The notes below the pieces were generated by a model. The model was not told the origin of the DNA, did not search any database, and saw nothing but the letters and a program-made list of their open reading frames with translations. Shown here piece by piece: positions 5,466 through 53,645 of a stretch of DNA of 64,000 nt. Numbering within the stretch: position 1 is the stretch's first letter; each line of letters opens with the position of its first letter. This DNA is from an uncultured Gammaproteobacteria bacterium (lineage in GTDB: Bacteria; Pseudomonadota; Gammaproteobacteria; Arenicellales; JAANXG01). The DNA lies in assembly GCA_945787105.1 (NCBI GenBank), contig CALZGZ010000120.1, forward strand, positions 3,159 to 67,158, given 5' to 3'. A program made the translations under genes and the position numbers.

Positions 5466-5514
5466 TGAGCTTGCGTCTTCTCAAATCATCGCCCGGTCCG
5501 GGCCTTTGTTCGCG

Positions 5515-31300: not shown

Positions 31301-33710
31301 GGACGCACTGTTTCGATGGGTCGATTACATCAATCTGCATCCGCATTGGCAGTTGTTCTACTGTGATGAGGACCGCGTTTCGGCCGATGGGATACACCAT
31401 GACCCGCTGTTCAAACCGGACTTTAACTTGGATCTATTGCGATCGACATCCTATATGGGAGATGTGGTACCAGTGCGACGCGAGTTGCTGGCCCGGCTCG
31501 ACGGCTACGGCAGGAGAACGGGTGCTGGTGTCTACGACATGGCGCTGCGCGTGCTCGATGCCGAGGGCGAGTCGATCATCGGTCACATTCCGGAGGTGTT
31601 GATTCACTGCAGAGACCGCCCGGACCCGCAACGCGACGAACAGACCGTCGCCGAGAATCGGCGTCTCACCGTTGAAGACCATTTGCAGCGCAACCACATC
31701 CGGGCAACCGTTGGCCACAATCTGGTCCCCGGTACGTTCTTCGTCGACTATGCCTTAAGCGAGTCGCCGATGGTGTCGATCATCATCCCCTACGGGGACC
31801 AAATCGACCCATCGCGGTTGTGTCTATCGAGCGTACTCGAAAAGACCGACTATCCCCACTACGAGGTCATCGTGGTCGACGATCGTGGTTCGGATTCGGT
31901 CGCCACAAGCGAAATTGGAATGATCAACCAAAGCGCGCGAAACGTACGCGTGGTGCGGAATCCCGAGCCGGGAGGGATCCCGGCGATGCTCAATTTTGCC
32001 GCGCGCGAGGCGCAGGGAGTGTTCCTATTGCTGTTGGATCCCGGAACCCAAGCCATACATGCCGAATGGTTGGCTCGCATGGTGGCGGTCGCACTACGGC
32101 CCGAAGTCGGCGCGGTGGGCGCCAGACTGGTCGATCTCAATGGCCGTATCAAACAGGCGGGACTCGTACTCGGCATGCAGGACGGCGTGGGCCGCCCGTT
32201 CGCCGGAGCCGACATGCAGGCCGCCGGATACCTGGGACGCCACCAGGTGACGCAGAATTACTCCGCGCTTGAAGCGGGGTGCATGCTTGTCAAGCGTGAT
32301 CAGTTCTTACAGCTCGGCGGCTTGAACGCGCAAGAATTCAAGCAATCGTATTTTGACGCCGATTTCTGCCTACGATTGCAGGACGTGGGATGCAAGTTGG
32401 TGTGGACGCCGTTTGCAACCTTGCTGCACCACGGGACCACGGCGGTGCAGGGACAACCGAGCCCTGCGCACAGCAATACCCTTGCTGCGGAACTCACCGC
32501 CTTCCAGCAGCGTTGGCTAACCAGGCTCGCCAGCGATCCGGCGCACAACCCCAATCTGTCACTGGTGGAACAGACTATGCAAATCGAGGTCGAGCTCGCC
32601 GTTCCGTGGCTCGACAGACATCATCCCCGCCCACGGATCTGGGCCTTCCCGCTCAACGACCAGGGTGTCGGACAGTACCGGGTGCGTCAACCGCTTGACG
32701 CTTTGGATCGTGCGGCGCTCGCCGAGCATGCGTTGTTGCCACCCCACGAAAGGGTCGAAAGGGCACGCGTGCCAACGGTGTGCGAACTCGCCCGGGCCGA
32801 TGCCGATACGTTACTGATTCAACACGGATTCAGTGATCTGTTTCTGCGCTGGCTGCCAAAATATCGTGCACTGGATATCGCGTTTCTGGTATTCGGGTTG
32901 GACGATAACCTGCTCGAGATCCCCGAAACAAACGACCGGCGCGATAAACTACCGGCGGATCTCGAGCGGCGCATTCGGGAGGCCTTGTCCCATTGTCACC
33001 GGCTCATCGTGCCGACAGAACCTCTGGTAGAGGTTTACCGGAGATTCATCGACGACGTTCGCGTCGTTCCCAACCAACTTGAACAATGGCGGTGGCAACA
33101 CCTGCGGCCAGACCGTCGGCCAATGAAGGGCAGCGGCGGAAAGCCGCGCGTGGGCTGGGTCGGCGCCCAGCAGCACCGCGGTGATCTGGCTTTGCTGGCG
33201 CCGGTAATGAAGGCCCTGCACGAGGACGTCGATTGGGTCATGATGGGGATGTGTCCCGCGGCGCTTCGGCGCTACGTGCGCGAATTTCACCAACCTGTGC
33301 CCTATAGCCGTTATCCGGAAAAGCTGTCCTCGTTGAACCTGGATCTGGCCGTGGCGCCCCTGGAAATCAATGTGTTCAACGAATGCAAAAGCGATCTGCG
33401 CATCCTCGAGTACGGGGCGCTCGGCTGGCCGGTCGTTGCCACGGACATACATCCGTACCGTGGTAAACCGGTCACCCGCCTGTCGAATAGCGCAACCTTG
33501 TGGATCGACACGATCCGCGAGCGGATCAATGATCTAGAGGCGCTGGCCGCCGAGGGCAGAGCGCTGCGCGAGTGGGTTCACCAACATCGCTTCCTGGAAC
33601 ATCAGCTCATGCCGTGGTTCGAGGCAATGTTATCTGATGCGGTGCTCGGGCGCTTTCCGATGACTTATGGGAACGAGCAGAATGGTATTCCTTCCGCCGT
33701 GGCAAGATGA
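28374..33710 (+). CDS. giant multi-module glycosyltransferase (five GT2/GT-A-type modules + one GT-B-like C-terminal module)
   Basis: 1778 aa. The GTG start overlaps the aminotransferase stop (GTGA). Repeated GT2 signatures: VVISTYN..ILDDYSSDNT..HGDD; SIVIPCY..VVDDGSPDDT..LDADD; SVIVTTM..IVNDGGDD..LDDDD; LDAG..YCDED..FKPDFNLDLL; SIIIPYG..VVDDRGSD. The C-terminal CKSDLRILEYGALGWPVVATD is GT1/GT4-like. Confidence 0.9.
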   Translation: MNDMAGQILVTVVISTYNHEHFIGRCIESVQLQNVSPMEIIILDDYSSDNTPGVIEDFRCDKRITYVRNPENIGPRLNNTRALEVGSGRYHVWLHGDDYLLPGHLERIIGGLEQRPECSLGYAPPVFVDAAGETLQTPDHPGRSKQDYAGGRNELALLLIHDNYIVPSSVVFRRSELNRVGNFHPSIPGADWDLYTRVAIQNPNFYYTNTLGVGYRFHPGQVSVQFYANTDPLKAHLHVVEQAMYSKAAGRLQGRELEILDYLNRRIQSFGAAAWTQDQDIRRVRGMLARHSSVRTPAAVGRTPTISIVIPCYRQAQYLTDALDSVLAQGFEDWECLVVDDGSPDDTAQVVTRFIKDHGESRIRLITKSNGGLASARNAGAAESRGRYILPLDADDKLHPDYLTETVAVLDRDPETDIVYVDEQNFGLAGHVHVKTQVSLEALKQHNVHDYCSLYRRKVWEQIGGYSPAMYLGGEDWQFWLAASAHGFRSHHLRKPLFLYRNREHTMVSETQAHLGLVRAQLVLHHPGIVGSGEIRAAEDTVKRTPAPLREKLRQALLKHTDNPLLCRFSQLADAGARDAPLELPSLIDPPLVSVIVTTMDRPEFLKDAVDSLVRQTYENWEAIIVNDGGDDIGDWITTADPTGRIHYIRHPQNCGLSAARNTGISLSSGEILCYLDDDDRLFPDHLETIVDAMQTNNTSLVYTEAEYVRELIEDGQRRDLSRTSPYSHIDYSLERLHIGNFIPVNTWAHRRELIAYAGDFDVTLHALEDWDLLLRLARITTPEHIPRITAEVRLRPGTVNDNMSQRARGDLPALHRKIYARYAMPGNHNVDRQRERMLKQLETDPAPTKPAAATQHRYDQWRQRHTLTESQAQYMAERMMLTWQVRPSIQLIVTHQAGQEDALADTLDSLGQQLYKGWGLSVVSPCPCPDDSFNRLPNLEWVEAQGDRIAGINGVVGDSQADWIVQLDAGTRFSPDALFRWVDYINLHPHWQLFYCDEDRVSADGIHHDPLFKPDFNLDLLRSTSYMGDVVPVRRELLARLDGYGRRTGAGVYDMALRVLDAEGESIIGHIPEVLIHCRDRPDPQRDEQTVAENRRLTVEDHLQRNHIRATVGHNLVPGTFFVDYALSESPMVSIIIPYGDQIDPSRLCLSSVLEKTDYPHYEVIVVDDRGSDSVATSEIGMINQSARNVRVVRNPEPGGIPAMLNFAAREAQGVFLLLLDPGTQAIHAEWLARMVAVALRPEVGAVGARLVDLNGRIKQAGLVLGMQDGVGRPFAGADMQAAGYLGRHQVTQNYSALEAGCMLVKRDQFLQLGGLNAQEFKQSYFDADFCLRLQDVGCKLVWTPFATLLHHGTTAVQGQPSPAHSNTLAAELTAFQQRWLTRLASDPAHNPNLSLVEQTMQIEVELAVPWLDRHHPRPRIWAFPLNDQGVGQYRVRQPLDALDRAALAEHALLPPHERVERARVPTVCELARADADTLLIQHGFSDLFLRWLPKYRALDIAFLVFGLDDNLLEIPETNDRRDKLPADLERRIREALSHCHRLIVPTEPLVEVYRRFIDDVRVVPNQLEQWRWQHLRPDRRPMKGSGGKPRVGWVGAQQHRGDLALLAPVMKALHEDVDWVMMGMCPAALRRYVREFHQPVPYSRYPEKLSSLNLDLAVAPLEINVFNECKSDLRILEYGALGWPVVATDIHPYRGKPVTRLSNSATLWIDTIRERINDLEALAAEGRALREWVHQHRFLEHQLMPWFEAMLSDAVLGRFPMTYGNEQNGIPSAVAR

Positions 33711-33846: not shown

Positions 33847-36324
33847 TTATCTCCCGCGCGCCGCGGCTGTTTGCGGGGACAGTGTGACAAGCTTTTTCTG
33901 ATAGTCAGACCTTGAACGGCTGGTGTTTTTCTCGTAGCTGAACCGTCCGACCATTTGTTGGAGATTGACGGCCGTCTTGGACAGTTCGACGGCCGCCTGC
34001 TGCGCCTGTGTCGCGCCGCTCAGGGTATCTTGTGCAACCTGGCTCACGCTGGTGATGCTGTGGGCGATCTCGGCACTGCCGGTCGCGGCCCCGGCCAATA
34101 CACGCATGATTTCATCGGTTGTTGTCGCCTGCTGCTCCACACCGCTGGCGATACCTTCCTGTATTTCATGGATCTTGCCAATAATTTCGCCGATCTTCTC
34201 TATTGCCTCGACCGCGCTTCGGGTATCCACCTGAATGGCCTCGATCTTTCTGCTGATGTCATCCGTGGCCTGACCGGTTTCCTTGGCCAGGTCCTTCACT
34301 TCGTTGGCCACCACCGCGAACCCCTTTCCGGCCTCGCCGGCGCGGGCGGCCTCGATGGTTGCGTTCAACGCCAGCAGATTGGTCTGTTCGGCGATGGTCG
34401 TGATCATCTTGATGACGTTGCCGATCTCGTTGCTGCTCTCACCCAGCTTCGCCACCGTGGCGTTGGCGGTTCTTGCGATCTCGACCCCCTGGGTCGCGAC
34501 ACTGGAAGCTGCGTCGGCGCTATCAGCCACAACTCGGATGCTGGCATTCATCTGTTCCGCCGCCGCGGCCACGGTCTCCACGCTGTTGCTCACCTCTCCG
34601 GCAGCCGCCGACACCGCACTCGCCCGATCGGAGGTCGTCTCCGCGTTGTCACTGATCTGCTGTCCGATCGAGGTCAACTGTTCCGATGATGCGGTAAGTC
34701 CCTGGGCATTCAGCGCGATGGTGCCGATGTTGTGTCGTAGTTCCGTTAGAAATCCTTGCAAACCATCTCCCATCTGACCAATTGCGTCCGAACCCAGCAC
34801 CTTTACTTCTTTGGTCAGATCGCCCTTTGCCGCGGCACTGACCACGGAAAGCAATTGATCCACCTTGCTGCGCAGCTTGGCGTTGTTCTGCTCCAGAGCC
34901 ATGGATTGCGTTACCGCCCGCAGACTTACGCCTATATGCACCGCAGCGTGTTTGAGAAAACGTTTTTCCGCCTCACTCGGATCAGCCGCAAACATAAGCA
35001 TCAGTGTGACGGTTTGATTGTCGTCCGGATTCAGCACACTGGTATAGATCTTCTGACCCGAGGCGTGTCCCCGAATTTCCGTCCACTGACCATCACCGTG
35101 GCTCGATACCTCATTCGAAGTACCAACTTCGCCGACCAGCGCGTCGTCACCGTCGCCGTACACCGCCAGTACTGAAGTTTCGTCACCCACCCGGCGTCGC
35201 ACCCAGGCCCCGACCAGGTCGAGCCGTTCATACAAGAACCCGACAGCCTGGTCGAGGAGTTCCTCAATCTGCGCTTCTTCCTGTATCGCTTCCGCTATGA
35301 GACGCAGACTCTCGTTCGTCCAGTTTTCCTGCTCAGCCTGCGCCTGCGCCTTCCGGGCTATCTCGGTCTGCGCCTTTCCCTCACTAACGAGCTTGGCCAG
35401 GTTTCTTCCCATCCGTCCCACCGCCTCCGCGACACCACCGATTTTATCCTTGGAGGTCACCTCGATATGTGCGTCAAGGTCCCCGTCGGCAATGCGTTTT
35501 GCGTATGCCACCACGCGACCCAGACGCCGGTCCAGTAACCGGTATAGCAACAGCATAGCGGCTACGACCACGAGGAGATTAACACCGAGACTCCAACCCG
35601 CACCGTGCTCGACATTACGGAGTATGGCGTGTTGCGCCGCCACGTTGTGGCGCGCTTTGGAAGTGTTTGCCGACGCGAGGTGGGTCCAGCGTTTACTTTC
35701 GGCCTCCAATTGCGTCGCGGCCTGCCTGATGGTCGACTGCAACTGTTGCTGCATATCCTCGGCGTCGTAAAGTAAATCGAACCGTTCATTGTGATCCTCA
35801 GTCGCCAGCAGCTCGTCGGTCATCATCACCATCACCCTGGTATATTCCTTGAGGTCCGCCAGCAACTTCTCTGACATTAGGCTATCGTCGACCAAATCAA
35901 GCGCCTGCAACGTCTGCTGGATCTTGCCTGAGGCAGTGGCCAAAGCCTCGGGGTCACGGTCGGTGTCGATCACCAACATCTCAAATTCAAAGCCATGGAA
36001 TTGCACTGCGTGCTTGAGGTGGTTCAATGACCGCATCATCGGCAGCAAAGCCTGACCCAGCTTACCTACGTTGCGATCGGTCTTCTCGATCAATTCGAGG
36101 TTTTCCCTGGCGTGTTTAGAGGCTTCATCGAGTTTGGTGGCAACATACAGACCACCCACCACGGCGATTAACACCATCACAAACAGGGCAGCACCGATTG
36201 ACCAGGTGACGGCGACTCCCCTTTTGGTTCCGTGAGCCGGCGCGCCGGCATTGATTGGGGCTTTTGCAGGCGCGGTCTCGATGACTTCCTTTGTTTCCGC
36301 TTCGGCTGTGTTTCGATCAGTCAC
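33847..36324 (-). CDS. methyl-accepting chemotaxis protein (periplasmic helical domain, HAMP, cytoplasmic GAF-like insert, MCP signalling domain)
   Basis: 825 aa. Two TM segments flank a helical region of ~200 aa. HAMP (IADGDLDAHIEVTSKDKIGGVAEAVGRM). Hairpin-tip block [35 protein letters not shown]. Confidence 0.9.
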   Translation of the reverse strand: MTDRNTAEAETKEVIETAPAKAPINAGAPAHGTKRGVAVTWSIGAALFVMVLIAVVGGLYVATKLDEASKHARENLELIEKTDRNVGKLGQALLPMMRSLNHLKHAVQFHGFEFEMLVIDTDRDPEALATASGKIQQTLQALDLVDDSLMSEKLLADLKEYTRVMVMMTDELLATEDHNERFDLLYDAEDMQQQLQSTIRQAATQLEAESKRWTHLASANTSKARHNVAAQHAILRNVEHGAGWSLGVNLLVVVAAMLLLYRLLDRRLGRVVAYAKRIADGDLDAHIEVTSKDKIGGVAEAVGRMGRNLAKLVSEGKAQTEIARKAQAQAEQENWTNESLRLIAEAIQEEAQIEELLDQAVGFLYERLDLVGAWVRRRVGDETSVLAVYGDGDDALVGEVGTSNEVSSHGDGQWTEIRGHASGQKIYTSVLNPDDNQTVTLMLMFAADPSEAEKRFLKHAAVHIGVSLRAVTQSMALEQNNAKLRSKVDQLLSVVSAAAKGDLTKEVKVLGSDAIGQMGDGLQGFLTELRHNIGTIALNAQGLTASSEQLTSIGQQISDNAETTSDRASAVSAAAGEVSNSVETVAAAAEQMNASIRVVADSADAASSVATQGVEIARTANATVAKLGESSNEIGNVIKMITTIAEQTNLLALNATIEAARAGEAGKGFAVVANEVKDLAKETGQATDDISRKIEAIQVDTRSAVEAIEKIGEIIGKIHEIQEGIASGVEQQATTTDEIMRVLAGAATGSAEIAHSITSVSQVAQDTLSGATQAQQAAVELSKTAVNLQQMVGRFSYEKNTSRSRSDYQKKLVTLSPQTAAARGR

Positions 36325-36338
36325 GGGGAGATCCGCTG

Positions 36339-37202
36339 TTAGAATTGGAATACCAGGTTGTCTGAGACCGTGTGGTCATCGTCGGCCGAGTGGTCGTAAA
36401 TGGCGATGCCGCCGACCAGCGTGCCACTGGTTGGAAATACGACGTCGTCCGGGTGACCGGTGTCGCGCTTGCGGCGGATCTCCAAACACCATTTGCCGTT
36501 TTGCCACTTCCCTTTGACCTTGACGTCGGCTACCGAACCCTGCGGGTCATTGGCAAGCAAATACTTGGGCATCACGTCTTTCTCGAACTTGGCGTAACGC
36601 TTGGTCGTGTACAACTTGTCCCCGGCGTCGCTGGGACGCGATATATAGACCTTTGCGCCGTTGGCACCGGGAAAATCCCGCGACTTCGTCAGCTTCTTGG
36701 TGCTGATGAACGTCTGTTTATCGTGAATCAGGCCCAGGGGATTGGAGCGCACAGACTTCCAATGCCACATGTCGGCCTTGTACTCCTTGCCCGACAGCCA
36801 GTCGGTCGAATACTCCCCGTCCATCACGAACTGCATTGCGAAACGGTCCTCGCGCTGGGGCCCCGCGACGTATTTGCCTGTTTCCTTGTCCCACACCCAC
36901 GGTTTGTGGACCTTGTCTTCGCTGGAGTCCTCCCACTCAACCAAGAAATAGACATAGTCGCGGTGTAAGCCGCCCTTTACATCGACGCTGTTCACCGCGG
37001 TGGTTACGCCGGACCTGCTCGGCTTAAGCGCGACGCGGGTGACCGGCACATCCGCCCACTCCTTGCCGTCTCCGTCCAGCGCCGGTTCGGACGTCAGCGC
37101 ATGCATGGTGACGGTTGTGGCCACCGCATCCGCCGCCGGCGCCAAAGTGGACGAAAATCCCAAAATCAAACAAATGGTAAAGCTGCTTCGCATCGTAGAC
37201 AT
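36339..37202 (-). CDS. secreted EB_dh/DOMON-like (ethylbenzene-dehydrogenase gamma-like, putative haem- or ligand-binding) protein
   Basis: 287 aa. Signal peptide MSTMRSSFTICLILGFSSTLAPAADA. The blocks LDGDGKEWADVP, EDRFAMQF and ADMWHWKSVRSNPLG resemble my memory of the EB_dh family. Ends 14 nt before the MCP start. Confidence 0.6.
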   Translation of the reverse strand: MSTMRSSFTICLILGFSSTLAPAADAVATTVTMHALTSEPALDGDGKEWADVPVTRVALKPSRSGVTTAVNSVDVKGGLHRDYVYFLVEWEDSSEDKVHKPWVWDKETGKYVAGPQREDRFAMQFVMDGEYSTDWLSGKEYKADMWHWKSVRSNPLGLIHDKQTFISTKKLTKSRDFPGANGAKVYISRPSDAGDKLYTTKRYAKFEKDVMPKYLLANDPQGSVADVKVKGKWQNGKWCLEIRRKRDTGHPDDVVFPTSGTLVGGIAIYDHSADDDHTVSDNLVFQF

Positions 37203-37292
37203 CGGTTGGGTACCTCCTTACCTGGAAATTGCATAATCGACCCAGCCCGGGCATCCCCAACGCCGGGTCGTACGACGTGATATTTAGTAGGG

Positions 37293-37319
37293 CTATCGGC
37301 ACCGACGTGCCTAACTTTA
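37293..37319 (-). promoter_or_regulatory. sigma28 (FliA) promoter for the EB_dh-like/MCP operon
   Basis: The minus strand reads TAAAGTTA-N11-GCCGATAG (7/8 + 7/8, exact spacing), ~90 nt upstream of ATG 37202. Confidence 0.65.
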
Positions 37320-37697
37320 GGACCTGTTCTGCGGTCATCCGACCCCCGCCCGAATACCATTGAACTGCACCCGGACCCCGTGATCCGGCTACAAGCCGGG
37401 AGCGTAGTCTAGGTGCCAACGTTTTGATCAAGTTTCCCGTCGGGCGACCGATATACTTCATTGAACCGATCGCGGCGCGGTCCATACCGTGACGACGCCA
37501 CGATTCCGCCCGCATATCGAACCGGGACAAGTACTGGAAACGCACACAAAGCATTCGACGTAAGTAGTGGGATAGCCGGTAATTCGGAAACCAAGGGGGC
37601 CGAATTGAGTTTAGACCCCAGCTTCCCGAACCCACGAGGACACTGAAATCCATGATAATGAAGCGATTACTGAGTGCGTCGTTGAAGGAGGTGCCCA

Positions 37698-39008
37698 ATG
37701 CGTCAGGCTAGAGCGCCCGCATCATCCAACGAGGCGCATGCGCCACATACCCTCGATCAGGCAGAATCCATTACCGGTGCGGATACCGCAACCATACGGC
37801 GATTCAAGCAGTTCGCGGTACTTTCGGATTCGGCGCTTACTGCAATCGCTGCGCAGTCGGTGGTCGAGAAGATACCGGCGGGACAGCAACTGATGGAAAT
37901 CGGAACCCGCGGAGACTCGGTCTTGTTTCTGTTAACGGGGCGCTTGGAGATGACCTCCGCGAACGGCGCGCCACACGAGATCGAGGGTAGTAGCGCTGAA
38001 GCCGATTACGCGATCTCGTATCTGCAACCACACCGTTATACGGTCACTACCAGCTCGCCCGCGGTGATCCTGCGCGTCAACCGCACCACCTTGGAAAAGT
38101 ATGTCAACGAACGGAATTCCTCCACCTACGACGTCGAGGAGATCGAAGCTGGTGAACAACTCCGCGACAGCCTGTTGTTTCATGAGTTGTACGAAGGTTG
38201 CCGCTCCGATCGCTTGAGGTTGCCGAGTCTGCCGGATATCGCCTTCAAGGTTCGAAAGGCATTCGAAAATAAGCGCTCGGATTTGTGGAGCATCGCGTTG
38301 ATCATCGACTCTGATCCGGCCATCGCGGCAAAGTTAATCCGGGTGGCGAACAGCGCCAACTATCGCGGAGAAAATCCGGCCGACACCACGACCGGGGCAG
38401 TCATCCGCCTGGGCGCGGCGACAACCAAAGAACTGGTCATGAGCTTTGCTATGCGTGAGCTCTTCAACACCCGCTCCGCAACGCTCAATCAGCGCATGCA
38501 CAGTCTATGGAAACACAGTATCGATATAGCGGCGACGTGTTTTGTGGTCGCCGGCAGAACCGCTGATTTCGAGCCGGAAACCGCGTTACTCGCCGGCTTG
38601 CTCGAGTATATCGGCGCCATAGCAATCATCAGCTATGCGGAGAAGTATCCGGAGATCACCGATAACTCAGCCGAGCTCGAGAGAGTAATCAACACGCTGC
38701 ATCCCCATGTCGGTGGGATGATTTTGCATTCCTGGGGATTGCCCGAAAACATTTCCATCGTGCCCGCCGCATCGGAAGACTGGTTCCGGTGCTCAACACA
38801 TACCCCTGATTATTGCGCTCTGGTCATGTTCGCGAAACTGCTCAACCGGCTGCGGCGGGACCAGCATGCGGACGCTCTCCCGCCGATACACGAGTTGCCA
38901 TGCCTGGCGGCCTTGGGTTTCGGCGACTTGACGGTCGAATCCACCTTAGCGATGGCCGCCACGATCAAGGATCAGATCGACAAAATGCGGCGGCTGTTGA
39001 ACACGTAA
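37698..39008 (+). CDS. cyclic-nucleotide-binding-like domain + HDOD domain protein
   Basis: 436 aa. GAAGGAGG Shine-Dalgarno. N-terminal CAP-effector-like IPAGQQLMEIGTRGDSVLFLLTGRLEM. C-terminal HDOD (LPSLPDIAFKVRKAF...DPAIAAKLIRVANSANY...LLEYIGAIAI). Confidence 0.8.
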   Translation: MRQARAPASSNEAHAPHTLDQAESITGADTATIRRFKQFAVLSDSALTAIAAQSVVEKIPAGQQLMEIGTRGDSVLFLLTGRLEMTSANGAPHEIEGSSAEADYAISYLQPHRYTVTTSSPAVILRVNRTTLEKYVNERNSSTYDVEEIEAGEQLRDSLLFHELYEGCRSDRLRLPSLPDIAFKVRKAFENKRSDLWSIALIIDSDPAIAAKLIRVANSANYRGENPADTTTGAVIRLGAATTKELVMSFAMRELFNTRSATLNQRMHSLWKHSIDIAATCFVVAGRTADFEPETALLAGLLEYIGAIAIISYAEKYPEITDNSAELERVINTLHPHVGGMILHSWGLPENISIVPAASEDWFRCSTHTPDYCALVMFAKLLNRLRRDQHADALPPIHELPCLAALGFGDLTVESTLAMAATIKDQIDKMRRLLNT

Positions 39009-39098: not shown

Positions 39099-39491
39099 CT
39101 ACAGGGCGAAACCCAGTTCTATCAGTTTTTCGCGCAGCTCGTCTTTTGAAAACGGTTTCGTTAAATAATCGGTCGCGCCCAAGCTGATCGCCTCCAGCAT
39201 TTCGTCCAGCTCATTGCGCGTGGAGATCATCAGAATACTCATTCTCTGGTAATTAGGCTTTGCACTCAGGGCGGTAAGCAAACTCAACCCGTTCATCACC
39301 GGCATATTCCAATCAACCATCGCCAGGTCGTAAGGACCGTGAGCGGCGCAACAATTGAGCGCTTCCTGTCCTTGGGTGGCTTCATCCACCTTGAACCCCA
39401 GATCCTCCAAAGTCCGGCGAACGAGCATACGCGTGGCGCTGCAGTCGTCCACGACGAGTGTACAGCGTTTGTAACTAGAATTATTGACCAT
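39099..39491 (-). CDS. single-domain CheY-like response regulator
   Basis: 130 aa. TLVVDDCSATRMLV...DLAMVDWNMPVMNG...MISTRNE...YLTKPF. GGAGA Shine-Dalgarno. Confidence 0.9.
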   Translation of the reverse strand: MVNNSSYKRCTLVVDDCSATRMLVRRTLEDLGFKVDEATQGQEALNCCAAHGPYDLAMVDWNMPVMNGLSLLTALSAKPNYQRMSILMISTRNELDEMLEAISLGATDYLTKPFSKDELREKLIELGFAL

Positions 39492-39576
39492 AACTGTATC
39501 TCCTGGAGCCGAATTAAGGCTTGATTACTCGCAAGGAAGCGTCATCAACCACGCCGACAAGCGGCGGCCATACGGT

Positions 39577-39604
39577 CTATCGGCATCATCGGCGCCTGGC
39601 TTTA
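39577..39604 (-). promoter_or_regulatory. weak sigma28-like promoter candidate upstream of the CheY-like gene
   Basis: The minus strand reads TAAAGCCA-N12-GCCGATAG, 86 nt upstream of ATG 39491. The spacer is 1 nt long and the -35 match is weak. Confidence 0.35.
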
Positions 39605-39650
39605 ATTGCGGTGACGACTCTGCCGATCCAAACGTGTCGCGCGGCGCCAC

Positions 39651-40022
39651 TCAGGATCTATTTTTCCGCATACGCTCCAACAGCATTGCATCGTACTTCT
39701 GCTCCTCTTCCGGAAACTGTGCGACGAATTCCTTGGCCTTAGAACCCAACGTTCGGTGATAAAGTTTATACACTTCACACGCGACACAGTTGCGCTCCTT
39801 TTGCGCCACACTGCCCTGGACCACGCCGCCGCACAGCGTACCCGCGATGGCCCAGCAGCTGTGGCCCAGGCCCTCGATCGCGGCAATACACTCGCCTAAC
39901 TCAGTCACTTTTGCGCCGCCGCTTTCACGCCCACATTGTTTGATATCCCAGCAATTCTTCAACAATTTCGTCATCGTAATTCTGCCTTTTGGTTTGCAAT
40001 ATGTTGATTCATCGGCGCGCAT
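39651..40022 (-). CDS. small Cys-rich 'two-CW'-type domain protein
   Basis: 123 aa, or 107 aa if it starts at ATG 39974. NCWDIKQCGRESGG...GECIAAIEGLGHSCWAIAGTLCGG...RNCVACEVY has 7 Cys and two C-W dipeptides. GAGGG Shine-Dalgarno 6 nt before ATG 40022. Confidence 0.6.
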   Translation of the reverse strand: MRADESTYCKPKGRITMTKLLKNCWDIKQCGRESGGAKVTELGECIAAIEGLGHSCWAIAGTLCGGVVQGSVAQKERNCVACEVYKLYHRTLGSKAKEFVAQFPEEEQKYDAMLLERMRKNRS

Positions 40023-40071
40023 TACTGACCCTCGCGGGCAGGCAACTCAAGGACGCACCGCAACACGTTTG

Positions 40072-40098
40072 TTATCGACATGAAGCGCGAAAACTTGA
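40072..40098 (-). promoter_or_regulatory. sigma28 (FliA) promoter for the two-CW gene (and possibly the CheY-like gene)
   Basis: The minus strand reads TCAAGTTT-N11-GTCGATAA (7/8 + 7/8, exact spacing), ~50 nt upstream of ATG 40022. Confidence 0.6.
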
Positions 40099-40213: not shown

Positions 40214-40240
40214 TAAAGGCTCGTTCGAAGCTGCCGATAT
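40214..40240 (+). promoter_or_regulatory. sigma28 (FliA) promoter for the MCP at 40311
   Basis: TAAAGGCT-N11-GCCGATAT (exact spacing, -10 element 7/8), ~70 nt upstream of the start. Confidence 0.6.
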
Positions 40241-40310: not shown

Positions 40311-42923
40311 TTGCTGGCTATGACGCGACGAGGTTCCTATAAACCGGGAGATAACACATTGAAGAACGTTCGTCCCGCACAGGGATCATCTGCATCCGGT
40401 TCGACCACCCCAAATCGGGCCGGCGTATTAGGTATCCGAGGCAAGCTGCTCACGGCCTTCCTGGTCATGGCGGGTACCACCGTGATTGCCAGCGCCGTCG
40501 GTCTGGTGTCCTACAGCAAATTGGGGGACCGCTTCACGCATATCACCAAGGAAAGCGTACCGACCATGTTCCACGCCCTCGAACTCGCAGAATATGGCGC
40601 CAAGTTTGACAAAGGCATCGCCGCGTTTGTCGAATCCGCAACCGACGACGAGCGCCAACACCGGTTGATGATGCTCAGAGAAATCTCCGACGGAATTGTC
40701 GAACACTCGGGACATATTCATAGCCAACGGCATCCCAAACACGACGAAGTCTCCGAGGAAATCGTCGCACCCACGGAACATAGTGTCAGCGAACAGGCGG
40801 CCGTCCACAGCGAACCCTCCTATGCAACCGTGGAACACACCAGCCCTGGTCCCAGCGAACCGGGATCCATCCACAGTAATGCATTGTTGCCGGTCGTCCT
40901 GGCGCGAATCGATCACTTGGGCAAAGAGCGGATACCCACCATCATCGCCTCCCTGGACGAACTGGTGCGGACACGTGTGACGACCAAGGGCGCTCTTGCG
41001 GGACGCCTTGGGGCGCTACGCGCCGACCACGTCGACCTGTCTCAATACCTGAATATCGCCATTTCGGACGCGGTGATGGCCGGCGTGCCGGTAAGCGAAG
41101 TCCAGCAATCGGACCCCCGCCCGGGATTGCTGATGGCGTTACTGGAGACCCAGGCGAGCGTAAACCTGATTCTCAGCGCGTTGTTAGAGGAGAGGTATCT
41201 CCCTGTCGACGCCGACGCCGAGCCCTTGCGGGCACGCTTTGAGGCCGCGATTGGCGCGGTTCGGATGGCGGGGGATAACCTGAAGACCACCGAGCCGGGC
41301 CGGCTCGCCTATGAAAAAACTCTCGCGTTCCTCAACTATGGGTCGGGAGAAAACAACATTGTCGATCTGCGCGTCGCGGAACTCGCCGCCATCGACCGGC
41401 TCACGGCATCGCGCAAAGATCATTCGTCGACTATCGCGAATTACAAGTCCCTGGTCTCCGATCTTATTGCCACCAGTAACACCCAGGTGGACGAAAATTT
41501 CGCCCGGGTCGAGGTGATGATTGCCAATGGCAAGCTGCTGCTGCTGGCGCTCGCCGGGCTCAGCATGCTGATTGCAGCGCTGTTGGGCTGGTTGTACGTC
41601 GGCCGTAATCTCTTGGGCAGGCTGGCCCGCATCACCGGTCAAATGCGCCGCCTGAGTCAGGGGGATTTGGGGTCGCAAATCCGCGTATCCGGGAGCGATG
41701 AACTCGGCGAAATGGCCGTCATCGTTGAGGATTTTCGATTGAAAGGACTAGAGAACCGGCAATTACAGGAGCAACGGCAGATCGCCGCGGCGGAGCGCGA
41801 AAAGGCTGTCGCGGAGACACAACAACAGGAAGAAGCGCGCCTCGAAGCGGAGCAACGTCACCGACACGTCGTACAACAGGCCGCCGAGCGCGAGCAACAC
41901 AAAGCCGCAACGCTGCGGGCTAAGGTGGACGCGCTGCTGGAGGTGGTCAACGCGGCCGCGGAGGGCGACTTGACGGGCAAGGTATCGGTCGGTGGCGATG
42001 ACGCCATCGGCAGGATGAGTAGGGGTCTCGCAGAATTTATCCAGAAACTGCGCACCAACATTGAGACCCCCGCAGAAAACGCGGTTGCGCTGACCGGTTC
42101 CGCAAACGAATTAACCAAGATCCGCGAGAACATAAGCATCAATGCGGAGCAAAACTCCGCCAAGGCCACAGCGGTATCCAACACAGCGCAACAAGTCAGC
42201 AAGAACGTGGAAACCGTGGCAACAGCTGCGGAAGAGATGGATACCAGCATCCGCACCATCGCGAACAACGTTGTACATGCCTCGGAGGTCGCAACCTCCG
42301 CGGTGGACATCGCCAGAGAAACTAATGCCAGTGTTAGCCAGCTGGGCGAGAGCAGCGCCGAAATCGGTAATATCAGCAAGGTCATCACCTCCATCGCGCA
42401 GCAGACTAACCTGCTTGCCCTCAACGCGACCATCGAAGCGGCCCGCGCCGGTGAGGCCGGGAAAGGATTCGCCGTCGTCGCCGGCGAAGTCAAGGACCTC
42501 GCCAAGGCGACCAGCCGGGCAAGCGAGGATATCAGTAAAAAGATCGAAACCATTCAAAAAGACACGGAAACCGCAGTGAAGGCGATCGCGAAAATCGGCA
42601 CGATCATTGATCAAGTCAACGATATCCAAGTGGGTGTGTCTGGAGGCATGGAGGAGCAGACCAAGGTGGCCCGTGACATTGCCAAGGCGGTGTCGGAAGC
42701 GGCGATCGGAAGCGCCGAGATTGCACACAATATATTGAAGGTCAGCGAGACCGCCGGCGGGACGTTGAAGGCCGTCAATGAGGCACGGACCTCACTGAGG
42801 GAGCTGGCGCAAATGGCTACCCAGCTACAGGATTTCGTCGCCCGTTTCAAATATCAAACACACCCGGAGCCCATCCATCTTACCCAGCATCCAGCCTTGA
42901 GCTCCGCAGCCGCGGAAGGTTAG
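40311..42923 (+). CDS. methyl-accepting chemotaxis protein with a large periplasmic domain carrying a His-rich insert
   Basis: 870 aa. TM1 at ~aa 47-68 and TM2 at ~aa 405-430. HAMP ([22 protein letters not shown]). Tip block [35 protein letters not shown]. The start is TTG 40311 or ATG 40320, after a GAGGAGG Shine-Dalgarno. Confidence 0.9.
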
Positions 42924-43229: not shown

Positions 43230-44078
43230 CTACGTAAGCATCTTCGCAAGATCGATAATCGACTGCACTTCCTGGTGGGCGCTGTCGATCACCGCGTTCA
43301 GATCTCCGGCATCCATCTTAAGTTCGCCGACCGCCGTCGTGTCTAGCCGCACGTCGGCCGCTCCCGCGAGGGACTGCCGGGTCCATTCGGCGCATACTCT
43401 TGTTAGCATGCACGCAGGCCATTGCGGGCCCCGGTAGTCCAACGTAGCGAAATTACCAATATTGGTCTGGATCGTATCGGGCATCCCCCACTGCGCAGCG
43501 ATTAACACCCCTGCCTGCCGGTGGTCCAGGCCGATCATCTGTGTTTCGATGTCGTGCAATGGCCGTTCCGGTTCGCGCTTTGCGAGTGTAAACACTGCGT
43601 CCATCTCCTCAGGTGAGACGTGGGCCAGCGCGATCACCCCGATGTTATGGAGGAGTCCATTCAAATAGGCGTCCTCCGGATCCGGCGCCCCCTCGATCCC
43701 AATCACCCGCGCGAGCCTGCGCGCAAGATGGGCGGTAAGTAACGCGCTGCACCAGTACTGATGGGTATCGAAACCGGGACATTTGTCCGTCCGGAAGCTA
43801 GAGCTCGCCGCGAGCGCGACGACCAGACTTCGCACCAGGTCCAGGCCGAGCACGCGAATGATGGCATCCTTGACTGAATTGGCGCGCGAGGGCAGACCGT
43901 AAAAAGCGGAATTTGCCACCTTGATGATACGCGCCGCGATCGGGGGGCTCGACTCGATAACCTTGGCAAGCTCCTGGAAATCCACATTATCGTCGCTCAC
44001 TGCTTTCAGCATCGACTGCATCTCAGCAAGCGGCGGAATTTCCTTGAGCCTGCGAACCAGTGGCTCTACGTCGGACAT
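43230..44078 (-). CDS. HDOD-domain signalling protein (paralog of 21094-21969)
   Basis: 282 aa. IESSPPIAARIIKVANSAFYG...DAIIRVLGLDLVRSL...LLHNIGVIALAH. Collinear similarity to the HDOD protein at 21094-21969. Confidence 0.85.
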   Translation of the reverse strand: MSDVEPLVRRLKEIPPLAEMQSMLKAVSDDNVDFQELAKVIESSPPIAARIIKVANSAFYGLPSRANSVKDAIIRVLGLDLVRSLVVALAASSSFRTDKCPGFDTHQYWCSALLTAHLARRLARVIGIEGAPDPEDAYLNGLLHNIGVIALAHVSPEEMDAVFTLAKREPERPLHDIETQMIGLDHRQAGVLIAAQWGMPDTIQTNIGNFATLDYRGPQWPACMLTRVCAEWTRQSLAGAADVRLDTTAVGELKMDAGDLNAVIDSAHQEVQSIIDLAKMLT

Positions 44079-44169: not shown

Positions 44170-44196
44170 TAAATTTTCCAACTCTCGGGTCGATAA
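44170..44196 (+). promoter_or_regulatory. sigma28 (FliA) promoter for the cheA operon
   Basis: TAAATTTT-N11-GTCGATAA (7/8 + 7/8, exact spacing), ~150 nt upstream of the cheA ATG. Confidence 0.65.
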
Positions 44197-44347
44197 CTAA
44201 CTTAGACAACGGCATTCATCAATTCTTGAGGCAGCCAGGTGTGCCAGAGAATAATCCAAGCGAAACCGGGGTTTTAAAACAATTGAAAACTCGGGGCCTG
44301 TGTTTGCGTACACACAGTCTCCAACCGATTGGACACAATTAGGTGTA

Positions 44348-46675
44348 ATGGCGAACAACGAAAACCTACTCGACGGAATGGAAGAGGTGATCCAGGAGTT
44401 CCTCGCCGAGAGCGTGGAAGGACTGGATCAGATGGACAACGATCTTGTTGCCCTGGAAGCCGATCCCGGCGATCCGGACTTGCTCGCCAACATCTTCCGC
44501 ACCATCCACAGCATCAAGGGTACCTGCGGTTTCTTCGGCTATGCCAAGCTGGAGTCGGTCTCCCATGTCGGCGAGAGTCTACTCAGCCAGCTGCGGGACG
44601 GTGAACTGGTGCTAACCCAGGAAATCGCCACGGTGTTACTCAATCTGGTGGACGCGATACGGGAAATGCTGACGGCGATCGAGTCCACGGGTACCGACGG
44701 CGAAAACAAGTACGTGGACCTGGTTGCGACACTGGGGCGACTGAAGGACGGGGCGTCGGCGACACCCGGCCCCCCGGCCAGTAAGTCGAAGAAAGCAAGC
44801 AACCACGCTAAAACAACCCGTAAAAATAAATCGAGCGATACCGAAGCGGCAACGGCCGAGGACGAACAGGCTCCGAGCGTCAAGCCGCAGCGAACCGGAA
44901 AGGACAGCCCTAAACCTGACGCCACAAGCGGCGAACAACCAAACCAGTCGACGCGCGGTGTTGTGTCCGTAGCGGAAAGCGCGATCCGGGTCGATGTGGA
45001 CATACTCGACAACCTAATGAATCTGGTAGGTGAGCTGGTGTTGGCGCGCAACCAGATCCTGGCATCTCCGGTTACCCAAGAAGACCCACTACTCACCAAC
45101 GCCTGCCAACGGTTGAACCTGATAACCAGTGAGCTTCAGCAGGACGTGATGAAGACCCGGATGCAGCCCATCAACACCATATGGAACAAATTCCCGCGGG
45201 TCGTCCGCGACATTGCCAAGGCCTACGGCAAACAGGCCAAGGTGGAAATGGAGGGTAAAGAAACCGAACTCGACAAGAGCCTGATCGAGGCGATGAAGGA
45301 TCCGCTCACTCACCTGATCAGAAATGCGGTGGATCACGGAATTGAAACGCCCGACGAGCGCGTGGCAAATGGGAAACCCGCCGAGGGGCGTGTTGCACTC
45401 ACCGCCTATCATGCGAGCGGCCAGGTGATCATCGAAATCGCTGATGACGGCGCTGGTATCAACGTGGCCCGGATCCGGGAGAAGGCCATCGAACTGGGAT
45501 TGATCACCTCCACCCAGGCATCCCAGATGAGCGAGCGCGATATCACTCGGTTGATATTCGCCCCGGGTATGACGACCTCGAAAAAGGTCACCAATATTTC
45601 CGGCCGCGGGGTAGGCATGGACGTCGTCAGGACCAACCTCGAAAAAATTGGTGGTTTTATTGAACTCGACAGCACACCGGGTCGTGGTTCGAGTTTTCGC
45701 ATCCAGCTGCCGTTGACGCTGGCCATCATCCCCGCGCTGCTGGTACGTAGCGGCAATGAATCTTTTGCTATTCCCCAGGGCAGCATCCTGGAGCTCATCC
45801 GCATAAATCAAGACGACTCCAGTTCCAGCATTGAGATGATTCACGGCGTTCCGGTATTCCGCCTGCGCGGCAAGCTGTTGCCGTTGGTCTACCTGAACCG
45901 CGAGTTGGAGCTGGGCGACACGCGCCAGCCGGACGGCATGTTGAACATCGTCGTGCTTCAAGTTGATCAGAGGAAATTCGGGCTCGTCGTCGAAGCGGTG
46001 GATGACTCCACGGAGATCGTGGTCAAGCCGCTGTCAGAAATCTTAAAGGCAATCCCGGTCTACGCCGGGGCAACAATCACCGGTAACGGTAAGGTGGCAC
46101 TTATTCTCGACGTGCTGGGTCTGGCGCAGCGTGCCAAGCTACTCTCGGAAAGTCAGGATCGATATATGGACGCGAACGCCGAGTCAACGACGCACGGTGG
46201 AGAGGCGGATCGTCGACCGTTCATCATCGCGAACACCACGGACGGTGGACACATTGCCATCCCCGTGGATTCCGTCGTCAGACTGGAGGAGTTCAAACGC
46301 GGTTGCCTGGAACAAGCCGGCAGCCGGACGGTTGTTCAGTACGGCGGCAAGATACTCCCGCTTATCAACCTGGCGGAATTGCTACAGGAGCGGCGCCGAA
46401 AACCCAGGAAAATAGTCGGCCAAGATACCAAGACCGCAAACGACGTCGTGCATGCCATCGTCTATTCCGTGGACGGCTACTCGGTAGGACTGATTGTCGA
46501 CCGAATCCAGGACATCGTGGATCACTCGCAAACAATGCAGGGCCCTCCCACACGCAAGGGAACGCTGGGCACCATAGTCATCCAGGAACGGATCACCGAG
46601 GTGTTCGACGTGGGATCGCTGCAGCGGGAAATCTGCTCCATGCACAAAACACCCCAACGCGCCGCGGGAGGATAG
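44348..46675 (+). CDS. cheA: chemotaxis histidine kinase CheA
   Basis: Hpt motif FRTIHSIKGTCGFFG. HATPase blocks HLIRNAVDHGIE, DDGAGI and GRGVGMDVV. C-terminal CheW-like domain. I placed the start at ATG 44348 (MANNENLL...); the ORF-track GTG at 44300 is also possible. Confidence 0.93.
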   Translation: MANNENLLDGMEEVIQEFLAESVEGLDQMDNDLVALEADPGDPDLLANIFRTIHSIKGTCGFFGYAKLESVSHVGESLLSQLRDGELVLTQEIATVLLNLVDAIREMLTAIESTGTDGENKYVDLVATLGRLKDGASATPGPPASKSKKASNHAKTTRKNKSSDTEAATAEDEQAPSVKPQRTGKDSPKPDATSGEQPNQSTRGVVSVAESAIRVDVDILDNLMNLVGELVLARNQILASPVTQEDPLLTNACQRLNLITSELQQDVMKTRMQPINTIWNKFPRVVRDIAKAYGKQAKVEMEGKETELDKSLIEAMKDPLTHLIRNAVDHGIETPDERVANGKPAEGRVALTAYHASGQVIIEIADDGAGINVARIREKAIELGLITSTQASQMSERDITRLIFAPGMTTSKKVTNISGRGVGMDVVRTNLEKIGGFIELDSTPGRGSSFRIQLPLTLAIIPALLVRSGNESFAIPQGSILELIRINQDDSSSSIEMIHGVPVFRLRGKLLPLVYLNRELELGDTRQPDGMLNIVVLQVDQRKFGLVVEAVDDSTEIVVKPLSEILKAIPVYAGATITGNGKVALILDVLGLAQRAKLLSESQDRYMDANAESTTHGGEADRRPFIIANTTDGGHIAIPVDSVVRLEEFKRGCLEQAGSRTVVQYGGKILPLINLAELLQERRRKPRKIVGQDTKTANDVVHAIVYSVDGYSVGLIVDRIQDIVDHSQTMQGPPTRKGTLGTIVIQERITEVFDVGSLQREICSMHKTPQRAAGG

Positions 46676-50489: not shown

Positions 50490-51357
50490 CATCCACTACA
50501 TCTGCGATCTAATCAGATCGTGTGCGGGGATTGAACTCGACGCAAAAGAGTATCTGATGGAACAACGTCTGCAGCCGCTGTGTTACCGTGAAAAGCTGGA
50601 CACCATTGAACAGTTGGTTGCTGTCATGCGTTCACAGACCGATGGGGACTTACTGGATCGGGTGGTCGACGCGTTTACGAACAACGAAACATCGTTCTTT
50701 CGTGATGTGCGCCCGTTTGAGGTATTGTCATCGTCGGTACTACCGGAGATCTTCGAGCGCGTGTACGGGGGACGGGTCAATATCTGGTCCGCCGGCTGCT
50801 CGGCCGGACAGGAAGCATACAGCATCGCCATGTCGCTCAAAGAGCGTTTCACGTCCGCGCAACGACGTCGCGTTCGCATTCTCGCCAGCGACATCTCAGC
50901 GACCATGATCGCACTGGCCAAGAACGGCGTGTACAGCGATTACCAAATTAGCCGGGGTCTCGCTCCTGAATTCAAAGACAAATACTTTGGAAATGATGGC
51001 GGGCTTTGGCGCGTCAACCGCACACTCGCTTCGATGATTGATTTTCGAAAAATCAATTTTCTGGCGCTACCGCCTGACCTGCCGAGAATGGATGTGGTGT
51101 TCCTGCGTAACGTGTTGATATATTTTTCCGAGGAAACCCGCATGCGTGTATTGACACAAATCCACGAGATCCTGCGTCCAGGAGGTTACCTCTTTCTCGG
51201 TGTTCCTGAAACAAACGTCAAGGCGATGGGCAAGTTTGAGAGAATAATCGAGAACAAGACGATGTATTTTCGAGTACCCAACCCATCGGTTGCGACCATC
51301 GATAAAGATTCGCGGCCGACGACCGATAATCCCATTAAAGGTCAGAACACGGGATAG
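50476..51357 (+). CDS. cheR: chemotaxis protein methyltransferase CheR
   Basis: 293 aa. TNNETSFFRD, IWSAGCSAGQEAYSIAM and VFLRNVLIYF blocks. Overlaps cheB by 14 nt. Confidence 0.9.
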   Translation: MRRHDIHYICDLIRSCAGIELDAKEYLMEQRLQPLCYREKLDTIEQLVAVMRSQTDGDLLDRVVDAFTNNETSFFRDVRPFEVLSSSVLPEIFERVYGGRVNIWSAGCSAGQEAYSIAMSLKERFTSAQRRRVRILASDISATMIALAKNGVYSDYQISRGLAPEFKDKYFGNDGGLWRVNRTLASMIDFRKINFLALPPDLPRMDVVFLRNVLIYFSEETRMRVLTQIHEILRPGGYLFLGVPETNVKAMGKFERIIENKTMYFRVPNPSVATIDKDSRPTTDNPIKGQNTG

Positions 51358-51377: not shown

Positions 51378-51740
51378 ATGAAGATACTGATCGTAGATGA
51401 CAGCAAAGCAATGCGCCTGCTCGTGAAGCGCACCTTGCGAATGGCGGGATTTGGCGACCACGACACCATCGAAGCCACCAACGGCGCGGAGGCGATCGGC
51501 GTGGTGCAGAAGGAGAAACCCGATCTCGTACTTTCCGATTGGAACATGCCGGAGATGAACGGCATCCAGTTGTTGCAGGCACTCAGAGATCAGGGCACCG
51601 ACGTAAACTTCGGATTCGTGACCACAGAGGCCTCCGACGAGATGCGGAAGATGGCCACCGAGGCGGGTGCCAGTTTCTTTATCACCAAGCCGTTTACGCC
51701 GGAATCCATGGAACAGACGTTGGCGCCGGTTATCGGCTAG
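51378..51740 (+). CDS. cheY: chemotaxis response regulator CheY
   Basis: 120 aa. MKILIVDDSKAMR...DLVLSDWNMPEMNG...ITKPF. GGAGA Shine-Dalgarno. Confidence 0.95.
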   Translation: MKILIVDDSKAMRLLVKRTLRMAGFGDHDTIEATNGAEAIGVVQKEKPDLVLSDWNMPEMNGIQLLQALRDQGTDVNFGFVTTEASDEMRKMATEAGASFFITKPFTPESMEQTLAPVIG

Positions 51741-52325: not shown

Positions 52326-52356
52326 GGGTCGAAGTGGGACGCTTCGACCCTTTTTT
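52326..52356 (+). terminator. rho-independent terminator of the che operon
   Basis: GGGTCGAAG-tgggacg-CTTCGACCC is a perfect 9-bp stem with a 7-nt loop, followed by TTTTTT. It begins 24 nt after the stop at 52302. Confidence 0.85.
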
Positions 52357-53188: not shown

Positions 53189-53645
53189 CGGACATGACCG
53201 GCCGTTGGAGCTCGACGGCCTACATGGCCTACCACCCAGCCCGGTTGCCCGAGCAAAGCAGCGACCGAATCCCGGATTCCAAACAACGTGCCAACCTCGC
53301 TTGCGTGCGGTTTTTGTGAAATTTGTGGGCCGGCGCGGACTCCCACTTTCCGGCTCCCATAATCCATTATCGGCCCGGTGGACAGCGAGCTTTAGCACTA
53401 TTAGTCCTAACCCGCGCATCGCACTAAGGCGGCGAAAAAAACAGCGGTTACATTGACTCCAACCGGCAAGAAAATGAGGTCTGAATTGAAATCAACCGCC
53501 GATTCTCAAAGCGTCGGTGATGGGAGGGAATCAAGAGACAGCGGTAGGTCACCGGCGGGCGCAGGGTGTTCAGATATGGCCAGGTATCGTAACCTCAATT
53601 GTCATCGCACGCAGCTTCCCGGCCCCGGGGGTCGCGCCATCCAGA

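Follow-up and report, generated by a model that had tools for sequence, protein, structure and literature searches.

Whether a small, Cys-rich protein encoded beside a stand-alone receiver could feed a metal or redox signal into the control of swimming is the question raised by one locus in a 64,000-nt stretch of DNA from an uncultured gammaproteobacterium (GenBank contig CALZGZ010000120.1, positions 3,159 to 67,158). The window, as we call this whole stretch, is a flagellar and chemotaxis supercluster. The locus comprises a gene for a 107-residue protein with two C-W dipeptides, which we refer to as the two-CW protein, and a cheY-like gene downstream of it. An original prediction, made from the sequence without database searches, had placed the protein in the "two-CW" family otherwise seen fused to sensor proteins, and had suggested that its Cys cluster supplies a redox or metal input to motor control, or a phosphate sink, by a route that bypasses the methyl-accepting chemotaxis proteins (MCPs). 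The reading that we favor, to which we assign a probability of roughly 0.45, is that the two-CW domain is a cytoplasmic input module built around a Cys-ligated cofactor, and that its stand-alone form in the late flagellar/chemotaxis regulon acts in trans on the CheY-like protein and/or the chemosensory array. The coordinates of all features are collected in Table 1.

Identity of the Two-CW Protein

The family assignment of the original prediction was correct. In a profile search, the protein scored 74.1 bits (E = 8.7e-21) on NF045718 ("two-CW domain"), whose curated cut-off is 35, with residues 6-73 of the window protein lying on model positions 1-78 of 80. The window protein has the two C-W dipeptides of the family and its full set of seven conserved Cys residues; the family model stops at residues 6-73, whereas the window protein adds His38 and a conserved helical tail. 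The family is thus already catalogued by NCBI yet uncharacterized. It has no Pfam entry, and no solved structure was found for it: Pfam returned no match to the protein even at E ≤ 1, and searches of the PDB by sequence and by profile gave only noise (E > 0.5). Literature searches gave nothing relevant under the family name, its accession, or iron-sulfur (Fe-S) and Cys-rich chemoreceptor domains, in line with the earlier remark that no functional data are known for the domain; no paper mentioning the family was found.

The open reading frame (ORF) was expected to be small, with seven Cys residues and two C-W dipeptides, and this is what the window holds. The 107-aa protein contains exactly seven Cys (C8, C14, C29, C40, C48, C63, and C66) and two C-W dipeptides (C8-W9 and C40-W41), so that the domain is laid out as C8-W9, C14, C29, H38, C40-W41, C48, and C63-x2-C66. 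Comparison with three orthologues shows differences at 17-18, 16-18, and 50-53 sites for codon positions 1, 2, and 3, respectively, and more synonymous than nonsynonymous codon changes. As to whether the ORF is translated, this codon-position pattern speaks for a real gene under purifying selection. The start at ATG 39974 (MTKLLKNCWDIKQCGRE; MTKLLKNCW...) is the conserved one in the homologue alignment. Orthologous proteins begin at the residue aligned with M1 of the window protein, the 16 codons between ATG 40022 and ATG 39974 are not conserved across homologues, and an in-frame stop upstream of M1 excludes the longer reading in two of the relatives (L003 and L004). The 123-aa form is nevertheless a possible product, because of the two starts it is ATG 40022 that is preceded by the better Shine-Dalgarno sequence (GAGGG-N6-ATG); an eighth, nonconserved Cys is gained only in that form. 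Since neither a signal peptide nor a transmembrane segment is visible in the sequence, we read the protein as cytoplasmic.

The AlphaFold model of the 107-aa protein is all-alpha and confident (predicted local distance difference test score, pLDDT, 86.5; predicted template modeling score, pTM, 0.77), with helices at residues 80-86 and 88-106 of the tail at a pLDDT of about 94. The model depicts a compactly folded domain, not a disordered peptide. When it was submitted to Foldseek, nothing related was returned, the best E values being 9 for PDB and 1.6 for BFVD. The tail, in which G77, P88, E90, and Y94 are conserved, is specific to the stand-alone subfamily of about 105 aa. Among 5.8 billion proteins, 211 close homologues were found, and nearly all of those listed are about 105 aa long and 54-83% identical to the window protein over their full length. 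When 1.84 billion cluster representatives (50% identity) were searched exhaustively with a profile, 1182 matched at E ≤ 1e-3, and a second profile search brought only further stand-alone proteins among the 120 best matches listed. A genome scan located relatives in 482 species genomes, and the best 80 of these loci were examined. Nearly all of the 80 come from metagenome-assembled genomes (MAGs) or uncultured lineages, and they span Gamma- and Alphaproteobacteria, Desulfobulbaceae, Desulfovibrionales, Planctomycetes, Acidobacteria, Verrucomicrobia, Omnitrophota, Chloroflexota, Ignavibacteria, and one member of the Bathyarchaeota.

Cysteine Conservation and Comparison with Known Sensors

A conservation profile was computed over 352 unique two-CW domains. 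Six of the Cys residues (C8, C14, C29, C40, C63, and C66) are each conserved in at least 99.4% of the domains, while C48, the only Cys that varies, is conserved in 96% and lost in 14 of the 352. W9 is present in every domain and W41 in 91%; position 38 is His in 62% and Arg in 29%. Conservation of this kind fits roles for the Cys residues as ligands or in redox chemistry, and a set of six or seven Cys residues that lacks an invariant His would be in keeping with a [4Fe-4S] cluster with additional thiols, a 7Fe-type cluster pair, or a binuclear zinc-thiolate site. The domain may therefore, from its residue pattern, bind a metal or an Fe-S cluster. Sorting the Cys residues into separate sites by their joint loss was uninformative, because losses are too rare.

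Two groups of known modules offer comparisons. The CZB domain (PF13682) senses zinc and oxidants by means of the Cys in its zinc site. Like the two-CW domain, for which the metal is our inference, it is a small, cytoplasmic, helical, metal-associated module that occurs on MCPs, on diguanylate cyclases, or alone, and we use it as a working analogy. The metal site of CZB is His3Cys, whereas the two-CW domain has six or seven Cys residues and no invariant His. A relationship by descent between the two was considered and rejected (hhalign probability 0.05%; no Pfam match at E ≤ 1), and the two are not redundant, because some MCPs carry both, with CZB N-terminal and two-CW C-terminal. The second group comprises the N-terminal cluster of FNR, the NreB PAS domain, WhiB-like proteins, and OrpR, whose Fe-S modules sense O2, NO, or redox state through conversion or loss of the cluster. 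These resemble the two-CW domain in placing a few invariant Cys residues in a small cytoplasmic module linked to signaling; they differ from it in Cys spacing and fold, and the two-CW domain shows no sequence or Foldseek similarity to PDB entries.

Fusion of the Domain to Signaling Proteins

Elsewhere in the family, the domain is indeed fused to sensor and signaling proteins, among them MCPs, CheW, histidine kinases, and GGDEF proteins. We scanned 44 longer family members against Pfam and counted MCPsignal 11 times, HATPase_c 7 times, and GGDEF, receiver, HisKA, PAS, and CZB 4 times each, together with single examples of EAL, HD-GYP, Ser/Thr kinase, PP2C, hemerythrin, cNMP-binding, and Hpt domains. 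Individual architectures include two-CW-PAS-GGDEF-EAL (L020 and L037), receiver-two-CW (P0197), receiver-HD-GYP-two-CW (P0232), GGDEF-two-CW (P0264), and a two-CW-CheW fusion (L044) that is located in a CheR/PilZ/MCP cluster. On MCPs, the domain is C-terminal, with or without an N-terminal CZB (L060, L068, L081, P0189, and others). Two short MCPs of 427-434 aa (P0206 and P0250) carry it as their sole accessory domain, as judged by Pfam. Because the domain has been recombined with many different output modules, and because some MCPs carry no other recognized accessory domain, we interpret it as a signaling input domain.

The same census bears on an alternative that we consider unlikely, namely, that the domain is a structural zinc-thiolate module, for example one with two Zn sites sharing six or seven Cys residues, which mediates interaction or oligomerization without sensing; the stand-alone protein would then be a constitutively docking adaptor or regulator. 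The six invariant Cys residues suit a binuclear Zn-thiolate site as well as they suit an Fe-S cluster, the domain often stands behind the output domain, and the long amphipathic C-terminal helix could serve docking. A distribution over at least eight output classes is, however, the pattern of an input domain and not of a pathway-specific adaptor, and a structural role sits poorly with the short MCPs that have two-CW as their only Pfam-recognized accessory domain, as well as with those MCPs that already possess the zinc-binding, unrelated CZB. Self-association, which a structural role could involve, is hinted at by tandem proteins and adjacent paralogues. Such copies occur as neighboring two-CW genes or two-domain proteins in L031 (1845-3034), L013 (1149-4585), P0146, P0152, and P0172, and they hint either at self-association or at an evolution prone to duplication.

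Sigma-28-Type Motifs and the Downstream CheY-like Gene

The original prediction had noted a good FliA-type motif before the two-CW gene. We searched the window for the sigma-28 consensus TAAAGTTT-N11-GCCGATAA, allowing at most 3 mismatches, and obtained 7 matches where 0.15 are expected from shuffled sequences. The gene flgM is a textbook sigma-28 target, and the match upstream of flgM (PF04316) in the window serves as an internal positive control. The two-CW motif matches at 14 of 16 bases with the N11 spacing, well above chance; from the end of its -10 element it is 98 nt to ATG 39974 and 50 nt to ATG 40022. The motif is kept upstream of the two-CW orthologues that lie in a chemotaxis context (L003, L004, L005, L083, L084/85, L088, and L089), where it scores 12-15 of 16, a score of at least 13 being reached in only 0.2% of control windows. 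It is absent upstream of three relatives in other contexts (L086, L087, and L090). These motifs suggest to us that sigma-28 RNA polymerase transcribes the two-CW gene along with the late genes for flagella and chemotaxis; fliA itself was not seen among the scanned ORFs of the window.

A small protein behind a sigma-28 promoter resembles FlgM, and a family named for its Cys motif resembles some families of peptide precursors. It could thus be asked whether the ORF encodes a regulator of flagellar gene expression (an anti-sigma or checkpoint factor) or else the precursor of a Cys-rich peptide made on the ribosome. We regard both as highly improbable: a compact fold is predicted, the domain is found inside large multidomain signaling proteins, the sequence has no HxxxCxxC zinc anti-sigma motif, and no maturase or radical-SAM neighbor occurs in families reaching more than 3 of the 104 scanned neighbors. 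The window, moreover, has a genuine flgM with a sigma-28 motif of its own, and the idea of a FlgM-like anti-sigma factor was rejected on account of the real flgM and flgN genes.

The gene downstream encodes a stand-alone receiver, as had been proposed, and this receiver retains all of the catalytic residues of CheY. PF00072 is the only domain of this 130-aa protein (95.5 bits). Residues D15, D16, and D60 (in DWNMP) and the Ser, Tyr, and Lys residues that follow align with D12, D13, D57, T87, Y106, and K109 of E. coli CheY. The best NCBIfam match, CheY PRK10610 (NF007901), scores 82.7 bits, below the equivalog cut-off of 189, and we therefore describe the protein as CheY-like and not as the orthologue of E. 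coli CheY. It resembles the stand-alone paralogues of multi-CheY systems in its DD...DWNMP...S...Y-x2-K signature and in its location in a chemotaxis region, and it differs from them in being paired with a two-CW gene outside the che operon. A motor binder, a phosphate sink, or something else are all candidate roles for it.

The distance from the two-CW stop codon to cheY is 159 nt, as claimed. No terminator-like site was found on the minus strand of this spacer, its predicted RNA fold is no more stable than that of shuffled sequences (z = -0.28), and Rfam gave no match in the window. The sigma-28-like motif that had been attributed to cheY itself is present, but it is weak, matching at 12 of 16 bases with an N12 spacing, and a score equal to or above it is reached by about 5% of random 200-nt windows. 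In L004, the gap between the two genes is only 61 nt and contains no internal motif, which implies an operon. Cotranscription is the likelier arrangement because the motif of cheY is weak and, in L004, missing; the most economical reading of the sequences is that both genes would be transcribed from the sigma-28 promoter upstream of two-CW.

Two-CW/CheY Pairing and Context in Relatives

To the genome loci we added metagenomic contigs covering the closest homologues of the window protein. Considering relatives at least 72% identical to it and in a chemotaxis context, the downstream CheY-like gene is intact in the window, in L088 (90% identical), in L083 (84%), in L084/85 (69%), and in L004 (73%); in L089, it is cut by the contig end and is 77% identical over the 81 aa visible. 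It is cleanly absent from L003, and in L005 (6416-6740), the orthologue has an internal deletion (residues 95-105) plus a frameshift, and is either a pseudogene or an assembly error. The pair is therefore seen in 6 of 8 lineages with a chemotaxis context; of the other two, one has lost cheY and one has a disrupted copy. The CheY identities of 90, 84, 77, 69, and 73% (L088, L083, L089, L084/85, and L004) track the two-CW identities of 83, 81, 78, 74, and 73%. The expectation that the pairing would be conserved thus holds within one narrow clade and fails elsewhere in the family: of the 79 other genome loci, those with a receiver gene downstream of two-CW all belong to the nearest relatives, and relatives of 68-73% identity in nonchemotaxis contexts (L086, L087, L090, and L091) have no CheY and adjoin amidohydrolase, thioesterase, haem-binding, or racemase genes. 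We conclude that the pairing is genuine and has been kept, although within a single narrow clade only, and that it is dispensable. The clade that has both the pair and the sigma-28 motif consists of uncultured Gammaproteobacteria.

In the close clade, an HDOD gene is the constant upstream neighbor of two-CW. More broadly, a chemotaxis gene lies within 3 kb of the two-CW gene or is fused to it at 20 of the 79 genome loci, in about 10 separate lineages. At L038, the two-CW gene lies 16 nt upstream of a gene for a PAS-Hpt-HATPase kinase. A conserved divergent pair was observed in Desulfovibrionales-like MAGs, where a 99-aa two-CW gene is separated by 140-190 nt from the gene for a 626-aa Cache-HAMP MCP (L042, L045, L046, L048, L049, L051, and L055, around positions 3900-6300); an EF-hand protein follows in some of these loci. 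A search for a universally conserved neighbor gene was negative, as each family accounts for at most 3 of the 104 genes flanking full-length orthologues.

Proposed Mechanism

In the mechanism that we propose, the oxidation or ligation state of the cofactor would shift as redox state, O2, NO, or metal status varies inside the cell, and this change would alter the conformation of the two-CW domain and its C-terminal helix. The protein would then bind a chemosensory partner in trans, either the adjacent CheY-like protein or the MCP/CheW/CheA array, and binding would bias the phosphorylation or availability of CheY and, through it, motor switching. As to what is sensed, which partner is bound, and which way the effect runs, we offer suppositions. 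For the locus in the window, the link to chemotaxis is drawn from the conserved sigma-28 motif, the clade-level pairing with CheY, and the surrounding genes. A route that bypasses the MCPs, as first suggested, is not favored: the natural fusions join the domain to the C-termini of MCPs and to CheW, and the receptor array is therefore implicated at least as much as CheY.

Several observations weigh against a Cys-ligated cofactor input acting on chemotaxis. With regard to the cofactor, C63-x2-C66 is the sole short-spaced Cys pair, no classical ferredoxin, radical-SAM, or zinc-knuckle pattern is found in the two-CW sequence, and a scheme with eight ligands is not universal because His38 is only 62% conserved. 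The placement of the domain after MCPsignal, GGDEF, HD-GYP, or receiver domains, at the C-terminus in many proteins, would also suit a role in output or interaction. With regard to chemotaxis, CheY is not obligatory, because it has been lost (L003) or broken (L005) where two-CW is kept; about 75% of the loci have no chemotaxis neighbor, and no dominant neighbor of any kind emerges, since no family appears more than 3 times among the 104 flanking genes. These last points would be expected if the link to chemotaxis were incidental and the protein were a general redox or metal protein, such as a thiol buffer, metallochaperone, or electron carrier, that does not signal to CheY or the array; so would the heterogeneous neighbors of the orthologues and the 68-73%-identical relatives in unrelated gene contexts. 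We nevertheless judge an incidental link to be distinctly unlikely. The sigma-28 motif is kept in all eight chemotaxis-context lineages despite variable spacing, the covalent fusions are overwhelmingly with signaling modules and not with metabolic enzymes, and the association with chemotaxis recurs in about 10 unrelated lineages, whether as a fusion, an operon, or a divergent pair.

A bolder form of the cofactor-input reading can also be stated. In this form, the two-CW domain would be an Fe-S or redox zinc-thiolate sensor of unrecognized fold that has been placed on every major signaling output of bacteria and some archaea, and the sigma-28-timed stand-alone version would relay redox, O2, or NO signals to chemotaxis via a dedicated CheY paralogue. 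We find this extension doubtful. If true, it would constitute a soluble, trans-acting input to energy taxis distinct from Aer/PAS-FAD, hemerythrin, and CZB.

Other Features of the Window

The flagellar genes of the window run from flgL through flgD and include motA, motB, flgA, flgM, flgN, and fliK-like genes; the che genes are cheA, cheW, an MCP gene, cheB, cheR, and a receiver gene, and further genes encode a PilZ protein, a GGDEF-EAL protein, three HDOD proteins, and three MCPs. The description of two-CW and cheY as wedged between MCPs was accurate (Table 1). L003, L084, L085, and L088 have an orthologue of the divergent MCP at the corresponding position, and L004, L005, and L083 lack it, while the convergent cNMP-HDOD gene is syntenic in L003, L005, L083, and L084. 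The second single-domain receiver has Phe at the position of Y106.

Table 1. Coordinates of the two-CW/cheY locus and of other features in the 64,000-nt window
Feature	Position	Strand	Description and basis
Stand-alone two-CW gene	39651..39974	-	107 aa plus stop; NF045718, homologues, codon-position pattern
Two-CW ORF, longer frame	39651-40022	-	alternative upstream ATG 40022, giving 123 aa
Two-CW domain proper	39756..39959	-	residues 6-73; NF045718 match region
C-terminal helical tail	39654..39752	-	residues 75-107; alignments and AlphaFold
Sigma-28 (FliA)-type motif before two-CW	40072..40098	-	TCAAGTTT-N11-GTCGATAA; 14/16 bases
Two-CW/cheY spacer	39492..39650	-	159 nt; weak sigma-28-like motif inside
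Weak motif before cheY	39604-39577	-	TAAAGCCA-N12-GCCGATAG; 12/16 bases, 12-nt spacer
Single-domain CheY-like response regulator	39099..39491	-	130 aa; PF00072
Motif of divergent MCP	40214..40240	+	TAAAGGCT-N11-GCCGATAT; 13/16
Divergent MCP	40311..42923	+	870 aa, HAMP and MCPsignal; Pfam
Motif upstream of cNMP-HDOD gene	37428-37454	+	sigma-28 consensus match
Convergent cNMP-binding and HDOD protein	37698..39008	+	436 aa; Pfam
Flanking operon with own sigma-28 motif	33847..37319	-	Pfam, motif, synteny in L003-L005
Motif upstream of EB_dh-MCP operon	37293-37319	-	sigma-28 consensus match
EB_dh-like secreted protein	36339-37202	-	PF09459, haem-b-binding; signal peptide visible; Pfam
MCP of flanking operon	33847-36324	-	Pfam
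Motif upstream of cheA	44170-44196	+	sigma-28 consensus match
cheA	44300-46675		genomic proximity to two-CW/cheY
Motif upstream of second receiver	51303-51329	+	sigma-28 consensus match, within 3' end of cheR
Second single-domain receiver	51378-51740	+	120 aa; after cheR in main che operon
Motif upstream of flgM	17858-17884	+	sigma-28 consensus match, 30 nt upstream of gene
flgM	17914-18243	+	PF04316, 70 bits; Pfam
flgM and flgN	17914-18739	+	flgN PF05130; directly after sigma-28-like motif

We note several further observations in the window. The EB_dh-like gene ends 15 nt before the MCP gene of its operon, and its product may work with that MCP as a periplasmic co-sensor of haem. The HDOD proteins are encoded at 21094-21969 (-), 37698-39008 (+), and 43230-44078 (-), the first adjoining the GGDEF-EAL protein at 18736-21090. 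A PilZ-domain protein at 13280-13894 (-), whose gene separates motB from the flg operon at its flgB end, may be a motor brake dependent on cyclic di-GMP (c-di-GMP). A possible island for flagellin glycosylation lies between the flagellar and chemotaxis genes at 25077-33710 (+), with genes for a methyltransferase, an aminotransferase of the DegT type, and a 1778-aa protein containing many glycosyltransferase domains. Separate ORFs at 16050-16964 (+) and 22621-23802 (+) each have the FliK hook-length-control domain (PF02120). Just past the che operon, at 52355-53419 (-), is a homologue of voltage-gated-type ion channels (Ion_trans/Ion_trans_2).

Significance

To our knowledge, cytoplasmic inputs to chemotaxis and second-messenger pathways are known for only a few cofactor domains, namely, PAS with FAD or haem, hemerythrin, and CZB. 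What is new here is the census of architectures, a confident model without structural relatives, the profile of Cys conservation, the sigma-28 control, and the clade-restricted two-CW/cheY bicistron. The two-CW family is moderately large and recombines with all of the main signaling outputs, and its stand-alone protein is a good candidate for an input through which metal or redox state would affect swimming behavior. The locus in the window reduces this to a minimal experimental system, a 107-aa protein and a 130-aa CheY-like partner behind one putative promoter, in which it can be asked what the domain binds as ligand and what its partner is. If the domain is an Fe-S or thiol-based sensor, it would represent a new class of redox input to the control of bacterial behavior, and hundreds of unannotated sensor proteins would become annotatable.

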